The translations under genes were made by a program, and so were the position numbers. The notes beneath the pieces are model-generated. The model was not told the origin of the DNA. It searched no databases and saw nothing but the letters and a program-made list of their open reading frames with translations. Below, piece by piece: positions 2,710-52,457 of a DNA stretch of 64,000 bases (the first letter of the stretch is position 1; every line of letters starts with the position of its first letter). Origin of the DNA: Heptranchias perlo (lineage: Eukaryota); contig NW_027139729.1 of NCBI RefSeq assembly GCF_035084215.1, forward strand, positions 1,612,001-1,676,000, read 5' to 3'.

Positions 2710-3229
2710 GAGTTCGGAACAAATTGCTGAAACCGGACAATGTGCAGTGTGAGCGTGTTTGTGATTGGTGGCAGATACTAAATGTGATTGGATATCTGAA
2801 GAAACCAATCAGAGAGTGAAAGTAAATGTTTTGTGTCCTCACGCCCAATCGTCCAATCACAATCATTGCCTTCCCCCATCCCTCATTACCATAGGGCTGT
2901 GGGGCTGCCTATTTAATCCGAGCTCGGAGCGGATTTGGGTCATTTCTGGGTCTGAAATTGAGTTTGAAAATGCCTGAGGACAAGAAAGCAGCTCCCAAGA
3001 AGGGCGCCAAGAAAACCTTGAGTAAAGCACCAGCCAAGGGCGGCAAGAAGCGGAGAAAGTCGAGGAAGGAGAGTTACTCCATCTACGTCTACAAAGTGAT
3101 GAAGCAGGTTCACCCCGACACCGGCATCTCCTCCAAGGCCATGAGCATCATGAACTCCTTTGTGAACGATATTTTCGAGTTGTAAACAATTTTACAACAC
3201 CAAGTTATAGTCCAGCAATTTTATTTTAA

Positions 3230-3270
3230 ATTCACAAGCTTTCGGAGATTTTCTCCTTCCTCAGGCAAAT
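3230..3270 (-). ncRNA. Minimal type I hammerhead ribozyme of the PLE
   Basis: ATTTGC-CTGAGGA-A-GGAG(AAAAT)CTCC-GAAA-GCTT-GTGAAT: catalytic core, stem II, palindromic stem III, stem I. Confidence 0.8.
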
Positions 3271-3519
3271 GTTTCAAGATCTCCTTGAAGCCTACGCATT
3301 TATACATATTGAACAATACATGGTGTTTACAGACTGCCCCTGCAACTGCCCGTTGCCAAGGCAATCACCGTGTTCAGACAGAGAGGTGTTACCTGCAGAA
3401 CCCCCGAATACACATTCAACAAAAAAACAAACAGGGAAAAAAAAACAGAGAAAAAAAAAAACACAGAGAGAGGCAGAAACATCCGGAAGGCAGAGAGAGC
3501 CAGCAAATGACCCATTATA

Positions 3520-5498
<1,979 letters not shown>

Positions 5499-7890: not shown

Positions 7891-8660
7891 TTATAAAGGG
7901 TCTAAGGGGATCCGCCCCTGGCCTCTGATTGGCTTCAGTCCCACACCCAGTCAGGGAGGGATCGCCCCTGGACGATGATTGATCCGAGCTCAGTCAGTCA
8001 GACCGAAACGGCGGGAGTTATTGGGCCCCAATTGGCTGAGCTGAAATTAATCATCAATTTCAAAAAGCCCGCCAATTTCAGAGCATCAAATAACAGTTTC
8101 AAGAAAATCTCATTTCCCTCCAGCAATTTAAGAATCTCTCTCTTTATAATCTCCATTATTTCCGACTCGTCAGCTTAAATCTCAGGCTGTTTCACATTCC
8201 GGTTCATTCTCTGATCTGTCTGTAAACGGGCGGGAATAAAGCCCCGGTCATTGCTTTCCGGAACGGGACAAAGTCCAGCTTCAATTTCAAAAATCCCGCC
8301 AGTTCCGGCCCGGTGAACCGCTCCTCAAACAGAAACTTCACATCGAACTGATAATTGAATGAGGGCAGGAAATAAAGACCGAGCAGAGAGGACACAGCGG
8401 GAGAGGGAGTGAGGCGGGATTTTACTCTGAGCGGAGAATGTAATGTCTGGGGAAAGACTCTGGATCCCCGCCTGTTCATTTATACCGTGAAACCGGGAAT
8501 TCCGCTGCTTCTCTCGGGATGGCCGAGAACCCCGGCCGTTGTTTCTGATCTCCCTGTACCGAGTGTTGGGGAATCTCCCCATAATAATTAAATATCGGAA
8601 ACTGATTCCCCATCCCGAGATCTTTCCTCTCCCGTTCCCAGGTCAGTGCTCTCTCTGTGA

Positions 8661-8817
8661 TGATGTGGAGATGCCGGTGATGGACTGGGGTTGACAATTG
8701 TAAACAATTTTACAACACCAAGTTATAGTCCAGCAATTTTATTTTAAATTCACAAGCTTTCGGAGATTTTCTCCTTCCTCAGGCAAATGTTTCAAGATCT
8801 TGAAAAATTGTTTACAA
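8661..8817 (-). mobile_element. Non-autonomous 157-bp PLE derivative (pLTR with hammerhead and tail, plus a 14-bp inverted segment), 12-bp TSD CTCTCTCTGTGA
   Basis: 8698-8800 is identical to 3180-3282; TSD at 8649-8660 and 8818-8829; empty site in the paralogous H4 at ~14265-14276. Confidence 0.92.
8748..8788 (-). ncRNA. Minimal hammerhead ribozyme (second copy)
   Basis: Identical to 3230-3270. Confidence 0.8.
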
Positions 8818-8839
8818 CTCTCTCTGTGAGGCGGTGGGT

Positions 8840-8855
8840 GGCTCTTAGAAGAGCC
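8840..8855 (-). terminator. Histone 3' stem-loop (H4 copy 1)
   Basis: Minus strand GGCTCTTCTAAGAGCC ACCCA. Confidence 0.9.
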
Positions 8856-8890
8856 TTTGTTTTGTGTTTGGTCAGAAAGGGTCGAGTTGT

Positions 8891-9211
<321 letters not shown>

Positions 9212-13010: not shown

Positions 13011-14286
13011 ATTGCTGCTTTACTCGGTCTTCATCCTTTGAATCTGGTGGAGAAATTGAAATAAAGTCAGTGAAACTGCCCCATTTTAATGTTTGTCTCT
13101 GTAGAATTTACTGCCCAATAAAGTGAACACGGATCCGGGGTCCGTTCAATTCCCCTTTTGCTTTGCTCTTGCTCTCATTCAGATTTACACCGCCCCCGGT
13201 TTTCCCGTTAACCACCACTTTCAGGGCGAAGAATCAGAATTCAGTTCCTTCCTCTTTCTCACTGCGGAGCCAGTCTCTGAAATAATTAATTACTGATATT
13301 AATATCCCGCATATTAGCAGCCCGTTCCCCGCATTGTAACAATCCAGAATGAACGCCTCGGGGAAAAGAACAGGCTCATTTTCAGGCTTCGTCAATGATT
13401 CCGTTTTCAGGACACACGGCTCCTGTTCAGTCCCTGCAACGGAATCAATCGATAACCTGTAATTTGTTACTTTTACAGGTAGAAGTGAAATTTGTCCATA
13501 TCAGCAATCTATGAATGGGGTTTTATTCCGCAATTTATGGACAATGTGTTTTTAAACAGCGCTAGGAATCTGGGACGTGTAATACGGAATAACATTATTA
13601 CAAAGAGATTTTAAGTCTTTGTCTGAAAACGACATGTCCGGAGTAATTCACTGATTTCATACACTGAAATTGGCGGCCTTTTTCAAATTTTAAAAAATCG
13701 GTCAATTCTGGCCAATAATTTGCTCTGATTTCTTATTGACGTCTCTCCGATTGGTTAAGGAAATTAGTTTTCAAGCAAAGCAACCAATGAGAAGTAGCCT
13801 CAGTTTGGAGCGGGCTTTGAGAGTTGGGCCTGTGGTAATTCCAGGTCCCCAATGACTGAGCTCAAACGGTTCAATTTCACAAACCCTCTCAGTATCAGTG
13901 TCAGAAACAACCATCAGAGTGAAAATCCATATCACAAGCTGGCCCCTTATCACAGCGGCTCAGCTTAACCTGTTCTCCCATGGAAACCCCCGGTCCCACA
14001 TCACAACATCTGACTGAGAAACAGAACCAAAACAGAGCGAATGGAGTGAAGGAGCATTTCACTGAGGGGGGAAATGCAGGTCCGGGTAAACTCACTTGTA
14101 ACGTTCCCTGGACAATTCAGTGCACTCATTCAGGGAAATTTTCCTCTCAGTAACCGGTGCAGCACGCCGCCGATCCCACGTCACCGTATTGTGTTCCTGA
14201 AAACTCCTTAATTATAAAACTATTCCCGAGCCCCATATATCCCGCACCAGTTCCCAGGTCAGTGCTCTCTCTGTGAGGCGGTGGGT

Positions 14287-16618: not shown

Positions 16619-17538
16619 TTATACCTTCTGGAGGAGTAGAGTGGGGGAAATTGTGATTGGTCCATCTGTCCTCAATCTCATTGTTTCAATGAACAGTCCA
16701 TTCAGAGAGCTGTTTTATTCACCAATCAACAGCCGGCAATGAGAAAAAGGCGGAAAATACCGAACTGAACCGTTTTTTTTAAAATTTGAAAAGCCCGCCA
16801 ATATATTTGTAACACAAGGAGCGGATTAAGTAAATAATGTCGCCTTAAGACAAATATTTAAAAATCTCTCTCCTTTTACTCTGTTATTCCACATTTCCCG
16901 TCACAACTTCCAGAATCTTTTACAATCCGGTTAAAATCCGGCTTCATTCACCGTTCGCTTTCAATCGGGCGGGAATAAAGTCCCATTTTGTAACGGGACA
17001 GATTCCAGCTCAATCTTTGTAAAAGTAACAAACCACAGATTGTGGATTGATCCCTGTTCACAGGAGCTGCAGCGCGATCGAAACCGGAGCCGAGACTCCT
17101 GGTGTAAGAAGTCGAACAGTGACAGAGCCTTTAGACTATTCTGTACTCGGTGTGAAGTCCCTTTCAGGGCTGCTGTTTTACAAAGGATTGCGGTTCTGAA
17201 AGTGATATTCCCGAATAATGAACAAACAAACGTGAAAAGGAGAAAAAAATGACTGAAGTCTAATCCACCGCCTTAAAACGGCTGTGAAGGTGCAGACGCG
17301 GGGAAAAGGGCGGAATATGATTGGAAATGAGAGGATGATGGACACGTTTTTGGTTATTGGGACCAAATAAAACAGAGACACACAGATTATAACGGGCAGT
17401 GATTATGAGAATCTTCCAGATTTGAAGAGAAATTACAATAGCACATCAGTTATAGAGAGACAGTTAGTATCAAACTATCTACAGTAAAATGATTCCATGC
17501 AGAGGTGTCGTTACAGCGTCTTCAGAGAGACTATGGGT

Positions 17539-17554
17539 GGCTCTTAAAAGAGCC
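17539..17554 (-). terminator. Histone 3' stem-loop (H2B copy 2)
   Basis: Minus strand GGCTCTTTTAAGAGCC ACCCA. Confidence 0.9.
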
Positions 17555-17588
17555 TTTGTGTTAATTTTTTTCAATAGATTGTGGAGCT

Positions 17589-17963
17589 TTACTTGGAGCT
17601 GGTGTACTTGGTCACCGCCTTTGTCCCTTCCGACACGGCGTGCTTGGCCAGTTCCCCGGGCAGCAGCAGGCGCACGGCGGTCTGGATCTCCCGGGAGCTG
17701 ATGGTGTGGCGTTTATTATAATGAGCCAGGCGGGAAGCTTCACCCGCGATGCGCTCGAAAATATCGTTCACAAAGGAGTTCATGATGCTCATGGCCTTGG
17801 AGGAGATGCCGGTGTCGGGGTGAACCTGCTTCATCACTTTGTAGACGTAGATGGAGTAACTCTCCTTCCTCGACTTTCTCCGCTTCTTGCCGCCCTTGGC
17901 TGGTGCTTTACTCAAGGTTTTCTTGGCGCCCTTCTTGGGAGCTGCTTTCTTGTCCTCAGGCAT
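17589..17963 (-). CDS. H2B: Histone H2B (intact)
   Basis: MPEDKK...AVTKYTSSK, 124 aa. Confidence 0.98.
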
Positions 17964-18225
17964 TTTCAAACTCAATCTCAGACCCAGAAATGACCCAAAT
18001 CCGCTCCGAGCTCGGATTAAATAGGCAGCCCCACAGCCCTATGGTAATGAGGGATGGGGGAAGGCAATGATTGTGATTGGGTCATTGGGAGTGATACAAC
18101 GTCACCTTTTCCTTTCACTCTCTGATTGGATATCTGAAGAAACCAATCAGATTTAACATCTGCCACCAATCACAAACACGCTCACACTGCACATTGTCCG
18201 GTTTCAGCAATTTGTTCCGAACTGT

Positions 18226-49310: not shown

Positions 49311-50209
49311 TCAGATGTTTCTATATTTAAAAAATGTAACAATTAGATTCAGTGGGTATTTCAGCCCGTTCTTCAGCTCCTCTCTGAATTTAGTCTGGGT
49401 CACAGCATAAATACACGTGTTGGTGCAGGAACTGAGAAGTTGAAGCATCAATCCGGCTGACTCAATGTCACTGGCCGTATAATACTGGGCGTTTGTTACA
49501 CGCAGAGAGATAAAATAAAAAACTTCTGCGCTCCATAACAATATAAAACTGCCTGATATACAGAAGAGTAAAATAATGGATTTCCTTCGGTTCTCCATCT
49601 CTGGATCATTGTGATTCTCTCCATTGCTGCGGCCCCGGAGTCCCCTGCGGACTCTATTGGCCGCTAAAACGTGCCTGGCGGTGAGAACATTGAACAGTAA
49701 AATCAGAATGAATGGGAGACAAGGCATTAATGCAAGATTAAACAAGTCAAACGCAGCAAATGTGGGTGAAGTGAAAAATGTAGGTTTGAAGACACAACCC
49801 CGGGGTACATTGTCCATTATATATTCCGGGTCTACTGCAAAGTACCAGGGAATGCTTAGTAAACAGCTCAGCGCACTCACCACCCCGATAACAACAGCCG
49901 CTGTTTTCTCGGTGCAATATTTTGTTTTCAGCTTCTGACAACAAATGGCCACAAATCGATCAAAGGTGAAAACCACTGTGAACCAGACAGAGGCCGCCGT
50001 GGCTGTTAGAATCAGGAAGAAAATGAAACGACACACGGGGGTAATGGTCAAGAATGAAACTGGGAAATAAATATCAGCAATGCGCCACATTATGACATCA
50101 GTGATAACGACCAGGAGATCGGCCGCCGCCATTCCCACCAGGTAGCGAGTGATACATTTGGAGAGTCCGCACTTTCCTCGGGACAGGATCACAATCGCCA
50201 CCAAGTTAA
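49311..50209 (-). CDS. Class A GPCR, GPR139/GPR142-like, exon 2
   Basis: Hydrophobic TM segments, AAADLL, FDRFVAIC, SCTNTCIY; acceptor CTCTCTTACAG at 50210. Confidence 0.9.
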
Positions 50210-52457
50210 CTGTAAGAGAGAGAAACAGAAGCAGAGAAATTACTGTTCAGACCTGGAGACAAAGCGGCAGTTTGAGAGGATCAGGGTGAAATTTCCAGCT
50301 TTGTTGCTGCATCAAACGGTGGGAACTGATTTACTGACCTGGGCTGCGCTTTCGGGCAGAGAAATGTTTTTAAATACAATGATCAATAAGGAATTGGGAA
50401 ATTGATACAGAAAGTTAACAAAGCGAGCATCGGATCCACTGGAAGGGCTGAGTGAGGGCGCAATGCCGGTGGGAAAGGGTGAGGTGTTTTACTGAGTGGG
50501 AATCCAACGGGTGAAATCCAGATTTGGGCTCCTGATGGACGGGAAAGTGAGCGAGGGTCGGGAAGGTAAGGGGACAGGGGGAGGTGCTGCTGATTTGTTG
50601 CTCTGGGTTGAGAGAGCTGACAGGGGCCAGCTCAAAACGGGAAAGACCGAGATCCGAGTCGGTGAGTTTGAAACTTTGAATACGCATGGAAAAGGCAGCT
50701 GGAGGCGGAGCCAGTGATTGAAATTGGGAGGGAGACAAAGAAAATTGACATGTCGGAGGGGAGGGGAGTCAGGAGCAGTTGGTTTGGGAAAGAGGATAAA
50801 CTGAAGCAACAGATGAGATGAGAGTGGGAGGAGAGGCGGGGATTCACAGGGAGAGACTGCAACAGAATGTTAGGGGAAATCAAGTCTACAGGTCTCAGTA
50901 ACACAAAGCAATTAATAAATTCAACTTTTAACGTCCGTGGTTATTGGTGTCAGGGAACAACTCGTTGGTTACATAATGTTTCAATAAATTTACTTTTCAC
51001 ATTCAATTGCAATTAAACTCGAATGTATTCTTTAAGTTAGCCTCGTTCTTTATTGAACTAAGTTGACATATAGCTTCCAGAGTATAGTATCCTAATAAAT
51101 CAATGCGATCAAGAAATCACTGATTTTATTATTTAAATACATTTCAATTATGTTTATATATTCAATCAGTAAACAAGTAAAAGGAACATTCACATAAACA
51201 GACTGAGGACCTGATAGCGATAAACACACCCGGAGAGAGTACAATAAAACTCTCACAATCTGACAACATCCTGATAACACTTTCAATTCACATTTCATCT
51301 TCATAATTATACTGGAAGTTTCAGCAGTTCATTCCGATTAATTATTCTCAACGCTGCCGTTCCCCCTCTCTCCACATCTCATTCTCTTTGTTTGTGTGAC
51401 TCTCTCTGTCTCTTTCTCTCCCGTCCCTTCTCCACCTCCCTTCTCGTTTTCCTTCTCAGTCGCGTTCTCGATCGTTCCTCTCTGTCTCTCCGCACTCTCT
51501 CTACTCTCTTTCTCAATGTCGCTTTTCACACCCGAGTAAATCCTAACTTCCTGCGCCTGCTTTCTCTTCACCAGCCCCGTGTTCCAACGATCCTATTCTT
51601 AAAGTCAGTTTGTTCAATGGTGAAGCCTCTGTGAACAGTTTAATGTTTCTACAGATCATTCAAGTCTCCAACTGTTCACCTACACTGTTCACTTCATCTA
51701 CAATGTAAGGAATGAAGAGAATCGAATGCCTCTTCCAGACACACCTCACAATTATTGAAATTCCTTCTCCTGAATTACAAAGTAAAGCGTTAGATGGCGG
51801 CATTGTTCAATTAACAAAACGCCAACATCACTGCTGCTGCAAAAAATCTACAGATAAATAGAAGGGCTCATGATTCCAACAGATAAAGTGCAAACTGATA
51901 CAAAATAACCTCAAAACATTGCATTTTACAGTGAATTCATCGACAGTGAAGCAGAGAATGAGATGTGAAAGAATCAGCAGCAAACTCAGTTCAGTAACCA
52001 GAACTCTGGAGCTTCTTCAGATACACACACAATGAAATAATATTTCATAAGAGTGATAACTAATAAATACATTGAAATCCCAGTTAAACTGAACCATGTT
52101 ATTGTGGGGGGAGGACATTGCGCTGCCTCCTTGTAACACTGAGACCGTGAGCTGTCTCATTATCAATCACTGAAAACACATTGATGAAAAAAATTCCAGG
52201 TCAGATTAGTTCCACAACATGAAACTGTTAACAGCTCCTGATGGTCTGATACCAGCACTTGGCCCAGACATCTGATTCCAATAATTCAAGTGCAGAGAAT
52301 AATCGAGTAACAAAGCCAGGGTTGGATAAACAAAGTTCACTATAGATACAATGCAATTGCTACAGGTCCGACCGTTTGAAGCGTCGACCATTACTCCACA
52401 ATAAATTCAGTGCACAGAATAATTCAGTAACAATGCCAGGGTTGGATATGCAAAGAT

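Follow-up and report, generated by a model that had tools for sequence, protein, structure and literature searches.

Endonuclease-bearing (EN+) Penelope-like elements (PLEs) leave a characteristic insertion unit in which an inverted pLTR stands head to head with its partner, a tail of 30-40 bp is present at one end only and a target-site duplication flanks the whole, as described for Pen2a_Av in two papers (PMC3846280; PMC8557442). The first of these reports junction palindromes and a TATA/initiator motif in the pLTR of Adineta Penelope elements, and prefers self-priming on an antisense template as the explanation for the palindromes (PMC3846280). The second describes the same insertion architecture and calls the origin of PLE tandem and inverted repeats unresolved (PMC8557442). 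In vitro work on Poseidon of Anolis carolinensis (PAc) found two start sites that flank the tail, cutting and extension of both target strands, and reverse transcription for which hammerhead cleavage is dispensable (PMC11167929). PLE hammerheads that lack helix III have also been described (PMC6155905). The inverted pLTR with a one-sided tail is already published PLE architecture; what we add is that, in two subfamilies, arm ends heap ~30 nt past the TATA box and not at the predicted ribozyme cut, and that the spelling of the centres is biased towards CG over TA. A literature search, with most subscription journals and supplements outside its coverage, returned no report of twin priming or of centre heteroduplexes in PLEs.

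The window analyzed here, a stretch of 64,000 nucleotides from Heptranchias perlo, is a histone gene cluster with nine histone stem-loops over the Rfam cut-off and H1 and H3 open reading frames (ORFs). It also has a tRNA cluster (57988-64000) and two ORFs named by eye, one C2H2 zinc-finger-like (38028-39158) and one GPCR-like (49311-50246). Minus-strand positions 8817-8661 form a 157-nt insert, the bounds of which were set by comparison with an empty H4 paralog. The empty 3' end of this paralog, near 14250-14285 in the same window, confirms a 12-bp duplication. The parts of the locus are as follows:

8815..9202, minus strand: host histone H4 gene; stop codon 8893-8891, start placed from the length, Rfam 3' stem-loop 8815-8860
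8818..8829, minus strand: upstream copy of the target-site duplication, 12 bp, directly 3' of the H4 stem-loop, from filled versus empty paralog
8804..8817, plus strand: stub (12-14 nt) of a tail-less inverted pLTR arm, antisense; its first base is that of the 100-nt inverted arm of sister copies
8791..8804, no strand: TTCAAGATCTTGAA at the centre of the inversion, symmetric about the 8798/8797 boundary, foreign to the long element
8698..8797, minus strand: pLTR arm in sense orientation, 100 nt, with no difference from the long copy or the youngest subfamily
8661..8697, minus strand: PLE tail, 37 nt, equal to the beginning of the next unit
8649..8660, minus strand: downstream copy of the target-site duplication, 12 bp, from filled versus empty paralog

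Positions 8698-8800 match the end of the long copy (3180-3282) at 103/103 nt. The long element reads TTCAAGGAGATCTTGAA where the insert has its 14-nt palindrome; thus the palindrome is an inversion junction and not native pLTR. A native subfamily with TTCAAGATCTTGAA was rejected, as 96 palindromes, each counted twice, and 4 more matches make up its 196. The insert leaves the H4 coding region and 3' stem-loop intact. The 12-bp duplication spans a purine-rich stretch right behind the stem-loop, and the upstream copy retains that stretch; a U7 snRNA search gave no match in the genome, nor in controls.

Within the sense arm we predict a minimal type I hammerhead-like motif, and across the end of the pLTR a hairpin:

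8748..8788, minus strand: predicted hammerhead-like motif, from core motifs and pair conservation
8788-8783 with 8753-8748, minus strand: predicted stem I
8782-8776, minus strand: core CTGAGGA, with one extra A before stem II
8774-8762, minus strand: predicted stem II
8681..8732, minus strand: predicted RNA hairpin TGGACT...AGTCCA, -13.1 kcal/mol, covering the pLTR end and the first 17 tail nt

The motif has the CUGANGA and GAAA core, stems I and II and a reduced helix III, as GAAA and a palindromic AAGCTT occupy the position of stem III; cleavage is predicted between 8754 and 8753, 56 nt from the pLTR end. Stems I and II are ~99% paired over 17 subfamily variants, with two-sided changes in 2 pairs, values that relatedness inflates, and the free core position (N7) is G or C among the copies. 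The ribozyme call rests on these core motifs and pair conservation; an Rfam scan of the window lists no hammerhead among its 20 matches at E<=1. Single-sequence folding of four stretches gave z from -0.2 to -1.6, none significant. The lowest value belongs to the 100-nt region around the hairpin, which shows no informative covariation, its 3' side being fixed by sequence selection. An earlier note, made from the letters of the window alone, had listed the parts of the insert, and most of its list stands: 14 antisense nt (8817-8804) followed by a switch to sense pLTR on the minus strand, the predicted hammerhead, the long hairpin, and a tail (8697-8661) that the long copy (3180-5331) lacks. The palindrome that it placed in the sense part is indeed present (8804-8791) but is not pLTR sequence, and the fold that it proposed to check is predicted for the hairpin but does not stand out against shuffles. 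The list leaves out the 12-bp target-site duplication.

The parent is represented in the window by a truncated copy:

3180..5331, minus strand: long copy, 5'-truncated and tail-less, reverse transcriptase (RT) plus GIY-YIG part, within an H2B gene, 5-bp duplication
3274..3304, minus strand: TATAAA box in the long copy, first T at 3304, with the A at 3274, 30 nt downstream, where most short arms of this subfamily end; putative transcription start

Its RT domain is over the cut-off (PF00078, E 1.7e-8), and its GIY-YIG-like domain falls just under (E 4e-4, 21 bits versus a cut-off of 22.6); RT followed by a GIY-YIG endonuclease in one parent ORF is the arrangement of EN+ PLEs. This copy has only a 5-bp duplication and neither tail nor inverted arm, and an intact H2B paralog lies near 17514-18032. 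A full-length copy elsewhere (L062) is a tandem of a 3,088-nt unit, in which the tail is the beginning of the next unit, as expected of a pLTR, and the ATG of the ORF starts at tail nt 37. Genome-wide we counted 31,485 exact junctions of pLTR end and tail. Among the first 100 listed, 90 were examined (85 distinct), and for 62 of these a duplication lies within 1.15 kb; 50 units are no longer than 260 nt, of which 37 start with at least 10 exact antisense bases and 5 more do so by eye. Kilobase-long insertions obey the same end rule and have the same outer ends as short copies, and short stumps arise separately from several subfamilies of the same PLE. Head-to-head long copies on G000:C1 (two of them L176 and L177) repeat identical spacings of 33, 587 and 3,001 nt, each at two sites that are not linked, as fixed junctions or re-mobilised inverted units would. 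Some stumps (L182-L184; G000:C1:15341351-15372201) were multiplied later via tandem duplication of host repeats.

A DNA search of the 3.25-Gb genome yielded 81 matches from 40 scored candidates. All 29 of the best other matches fetched (29/29) are palindromes with an inverted arm and the same centre, one of them with a complex centre and two with eroded left ends. Their standard layout, 237 nt in all, is a tail-less inverted arm of ~100 nt, the centre TTCAAGATCTTGAA, a sense arm of 100 nt and the tail; the inverted arm measures 90-100 nt and is not a 14-nt stub. We counted 96 loci with the exact 32-nt centre, and 18 further loci of this kind that we fetched agree, although two (L162, L167) are tail-less on both arms yet carry duplications. 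No diagnostic mutation sets the 237-mer apart from the long element. The subfamily of the window has 1,039 loci with two back-to-back hammerhead arms around a centre of at most 30 nt and, partly overlapping with these, 492 loci with a centre of 31-61 nt; a single subfamily carries many different centres.

Short inverted units with a tailed arm are nearly always flanked by duplications. Among 127 such units, drawn from all fetched loci of searches that had enriched for palindromes, a duplication of at least 8 bp is present in 124 (control, 1/127) and one of 12-14 bp in 111, mostly 12-13 bp; the duplicated sequences are 72% AT. Tails on both arms occur at only one locus (L131), counted twice among the 127. 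Inverted 5'-truncated copy, one-sided tail of 30-40 nt and target-site duplication are features of EN+ PLE insertions. The two arms are identical in 102/124 pairs, and their alleles at diagnostic sites differ in 0/79 young and 7/48 older units; later mutation could give as much, so these differences do not point to two different RNA templates. In three of four recurrent mismatched pairs the arms are separated by 447-812 nt and may belong to insertions that are merely neighbours. At G000:C13:28742810-28742833 and G000:C2:63592854-63592919 the arms of short palindromes differ in subfamily alleles beside the centre, which makes these two candidates for two-template insertions.

Against this family, the insert of the window equals a 237-mer (L002) minus 80 nt of the left arm. 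The 80-nt gap is bounded by direct repeats that, read from the sequence, are 8/10 identical, and the exact junction with the 14-nt stub occurs once in the 3.25-Gb genome. The insert is likely a shortened version of the recurrent mirror-image stump. It might have arisen from a normal 237-nt insertion by later slippage between the imperfect 10-nt repeats 80 nt apart; alternatively, the tail-less cDNA might have ended early, at ~14 nt, with a short templated patch added at joining or integration. Under either route this copy is a single accident and not a lineage, and the locus is a damaged stump, probably inert, behind one of many histone genes. The proposal that it is a snapshot of PLE integration agrees with the duplication, the tail, the inversion and the short sister palindromes, which number more than a thousand. 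The 14-nt stub is not the form of the family. The other suggestion in the earlier note, that the insert derives from a SINE- or retrozyme-like RNA, is not supported; it is at odds with the many centres, the several subfamilies, ends shared with kilobase insertions and arms that miss the predicted cut. As for the copy count that the note had proposed, the precise structure is unique to the locus, but other short copies abound.

We mapped arm ends to subfamily references and numbered positions from the first T of TATAAA. The ends cluster 84-104 nt from the pLTR end and peak at +28 to +32. Nested counts, which contain mutational decay, locate the edge genome-wide. In the subfamily of the window they fall from 7,979 (+39) to 6,436 (+31), 5,317 (+29) and 4,436 (+21, counted with a degenerate and slightly shorter pattern), and from 2,799 to 2,568 between +14 and +1; the loss per nt is 2.7% from +39 to +31, steepest at 9.1% from +31 to +29, 2.2% to +21 and 0.7% from +14 to +1. 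Likewise, the second subfamily declines from 12,271 (+35) to 6,389 (+30), 4,257 (+27) and 3,696 (+21), a loss, by hand arithmetic, of 12.7% per nt from +30 to +27 and of 2.3% thereafter; its 48% drop from +35 to +30 is equally steep, in part through allele variation. In this subfamily the distance from +30 to the pLTR end is 7 nt larger; the edge still lies ~30 nt behind the TATA box, at 102-105 nt from the element end versus 95-97 nt in the subfamily of the window. Three single-arm copies with duplications (L110, L222, L228) start at the same stop. RNA polymerase II as a standard starts near 30 nt from the TATA box. The short arms may thus be run-off cDNAs of the 5' pLTR, with a transcription start that the pattern of ends places ~30 nt behind the box. 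Assembled contigs from four sequencing runs of one sample, presumed to be RNA, show neither a start nor an end. In the subfamily of the window the +31 stop falls on a self-annealing site of 8 nt, and start site and annealing preference are therefore confounded there; only the second subfamily and the rarity of AAGCTT centres (74 loci, beside the predicted hammerhead cut) tell them apart.

The spelling of the centres bears on how the arms were joined. A cDNA ending at +31 has the terminus AAATGTTT, which pairs with a second copy of itself across 8 nt, two T·G mismatches lying in the middle; one ending at +23 pairs via AGATCT. The commonest centre, AAA-NN-TTT at +31, is present at 400 tailed loci, and the first 100 listed, oriented by the tail and counted by hand, read TG in 50, CA in 43, CG in 7 and TA in 0. 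Genome-wide, with the sister allele included, CG centres number 52 and TA centres 1 (binomial p about 1e-14). CpG decay was rejected as the origin of the three spellings: the parent reads CA at this position, and a CpG ~20 nt away is intact in 99/100 of those listed. Ordinary mutation would favour TA and quasi-palindrome correction would yield both alike, whereas CG alone results when the T of a T·G pair is repaired. Thymine glycosylases have a known bias to repair the T of such a pair. Two adjacent centre bases cannot pair within a hairpin; hence it was likely two same-sense strands that annealed. The spellings suggest that two cDNA ends would have annealed across a tandem T·G mismatch, followed by T-to-C repair. 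Centre variants near AGATCT (AGATCTCGAAAC, GGATCTTGAAAC) match this prediction, with a templated 3' base kept as mismatch. Fillers at many centres (e.g. L108, L212, L221) are short, are copied from the element or from other DNA, and are expected of repair-type joining. The centre in the window belongs to a minor class: it is a perfect palindrome that bears no mismatch signature, so its mechanism is carried over from the sister classes, and it requires a template that reaches +23 to +25, beyond the main stop by 6-8 nt in the upstream direction, and therefore a minor start or a read-through RNA.

At the locus itself we see a 12-bp duplication, a tail on one arm, identity with the long element, the same centre in a class of 237 nt and a junction found nowhere else. 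An EN+ PLE left the insert as a short side product, which quite probably arose when both target ends primed cDNA, the cDNA ends paired at AGATCT and 80 nt were lost. In such a process the GIY-YIG nuclease would cut the target with a stagger of 12-13 nt, and both cut ends would prime short cDNAs on the front end of the element RNA, one strand beginning at the tail end and the other at the pLTR end, the two start sites seen with PAc in vitro. On the 5'-most pLTR, copying would run off the RNA start ~30 nt behind the TATA box, or end a few bases further; the two cDNA 3' ends would anneal at their self-complementary terminus, and repair would fill in. For the copy in the window, the palindrome AGATCT would have been the site of pairing, and the left arm would have lost 80 nt. 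For the family as a whole, we lean towards the view that PLE head-to-head inverted repeats reflect obligate double target-priming from sense RNA, that the palindromes result from double run-off at the 5' pLTR and record the transcription start, and that the 52-to-1 bias is a fossil of a cDNA-cDNA heteroduplex which, like a doubly deaminated CpG, the host repaired from T to C. One RNA copied twice, or a single active source, would also account for the shared arm alleles.

The published interpretation of such junctions is fold-back (PMC3846280): one cDNA, or an antisense RNA as that paper proposes, would snap back at a palindrome and copy itself, and the hairpin would integrate with loss of one tail; for the copy in the window, a 5-nt snap-back at AGATCT would come first, and a second end of 14 nt would then be joined on. 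Arm alleles that are nearly always shared, centres located at self-complementary cDNA ends, and the short templated fillers at many centres, which resemble snap-back and re-annealing, all fit this idea. We nevertheless consider it improbable. Centre bases in a hairpin loop cannot make a T·G pair, which predicts neither a CG class nor a bias of CG over TA, against the 52 to 1 observed. The near 1:1 ratio of TG to CA, taken alone, speaks less clearly, as fold-back predicts a fixed orientation unless tail loss is random, in which case the same ratio is expected. Furthermore, in the reported assays sense RNA serves the anole enzyme to extend both target strands (PMC11167929). While a joint is being repaired, some limited snap-back may occur, including at the copy in the window. 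A related reading, which we hold still less likely, retains two cDNAs and lets RNA structure (the hammerhead exit, an upstream hairpin) or an annealing preference set the stop in place of the RNA start. It accommodates stops within 5-20 nt of stem I, the many arm ends between +32 and +50, and the fact that both hotspots of the subfamily in the window are self-annealing sites. Yet between subfamilies the edge tracks the TATA box and not the hammerhead, single-arm copies end at the same place, and the AAGCTT palindrome inside the hammerhead is seldom used.

Another reading takes the stumps for a SINE- or retrozyme-like non-autonomous element, in which a master locus would supply a short RNA, palindromic or processed by a ribozyme, for mobilisation in trans; 96 near-identical 237-nt copies, 400 loci with another exact centre and conserved hammerhead stems speak for it. 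This reading is largely refuted, and we regard it as very unlikely. Each subfamily has its own stumps, a single subfamily has many centres, TG, CA and CG centres occur together, the outer ends are those of long insertions, the form in the window is single-copy, and we found no fixed, master-copied structure marked by diagnostic mutations, the 237-mer included. Nor did we find units bounded by ribozyme cuts or by ribozyme-bearing direct repeats: arm ends lie mostly at 84-104 nt from the pLTR end and the predicted cut at 56. The hammerhead cut was likewise rejected as the 5' end of the short copies, since only ~8 of 142 mapped arms, a set that includes duplicates, end 49-56 nt from the pLTR end. 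The hammerhead rides along and does not set the ends.

The statistics of the family weigh more than the locus, and with them a mechanistic question about PLE repeats becomes testable. Centre statistics are a discriminator between fold-back and two-cDNA annealing that needs sequence only, and the run-off reading predicts the RNA start to the base. The two start sites of PAc, as reported for the in vitro reaction (PMC11167929), become tied to both ends of every insertion. If true, double target-priming replaces the published hypothesis of antisense self-priming. In annotation, stumps of this kind should be filed as truncation products of PLEs and not as MITEs, SINEs or new ribozyme elements.

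In LINE-1 twin priming the second target strand also primes a cDNA, and microhomology joins the two into an inversion with a target-site duplication. The second LINE-1 cDNA is primed at variable internal sites and the two segments do not overlap; here the same stretch is copied by both cDNAs from two fixed starts, which gives a palindrome. With retrozymes and hammerhead-bearing satellite- or SINE-like retroelements (PMC6155905), the stumps share small size, non-coding content, a hammerhead, dispersal and target-site duplications, but they have no tandem or LTR-flanking ribozymes to release a unit RNA, their ends lie off the cut, and they form no master lineage. PAc (PMC11167929) likewise has two adjacent start sites that bound the tail, uses both target strands, has AT-rich targets and does not need the hammerhead cut. 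Its tail lies 111-118 nt inside the ORF, which begins in stem II, whereas here the tail ends at the ATG. The Pen2a_Av-type unit (PMC3846280; PMC8557442) is matched in having an inverted 5'-truncated copy, a one-sided tail, a target-site duplication, a palindrome at the inverted junction, a TATA box and initiator-like motif in the pLTR, and a parent with RT plus a C-terminal domain of the GIY-YIG type. The stumps differ in being minimal, with no coding part, in numbering thousands, and in junctions that heap at the putative RNA start; and where self-priming was proposed for that unit (PMC3846280), the spelling of the centres here favours two annealed cDNAs.
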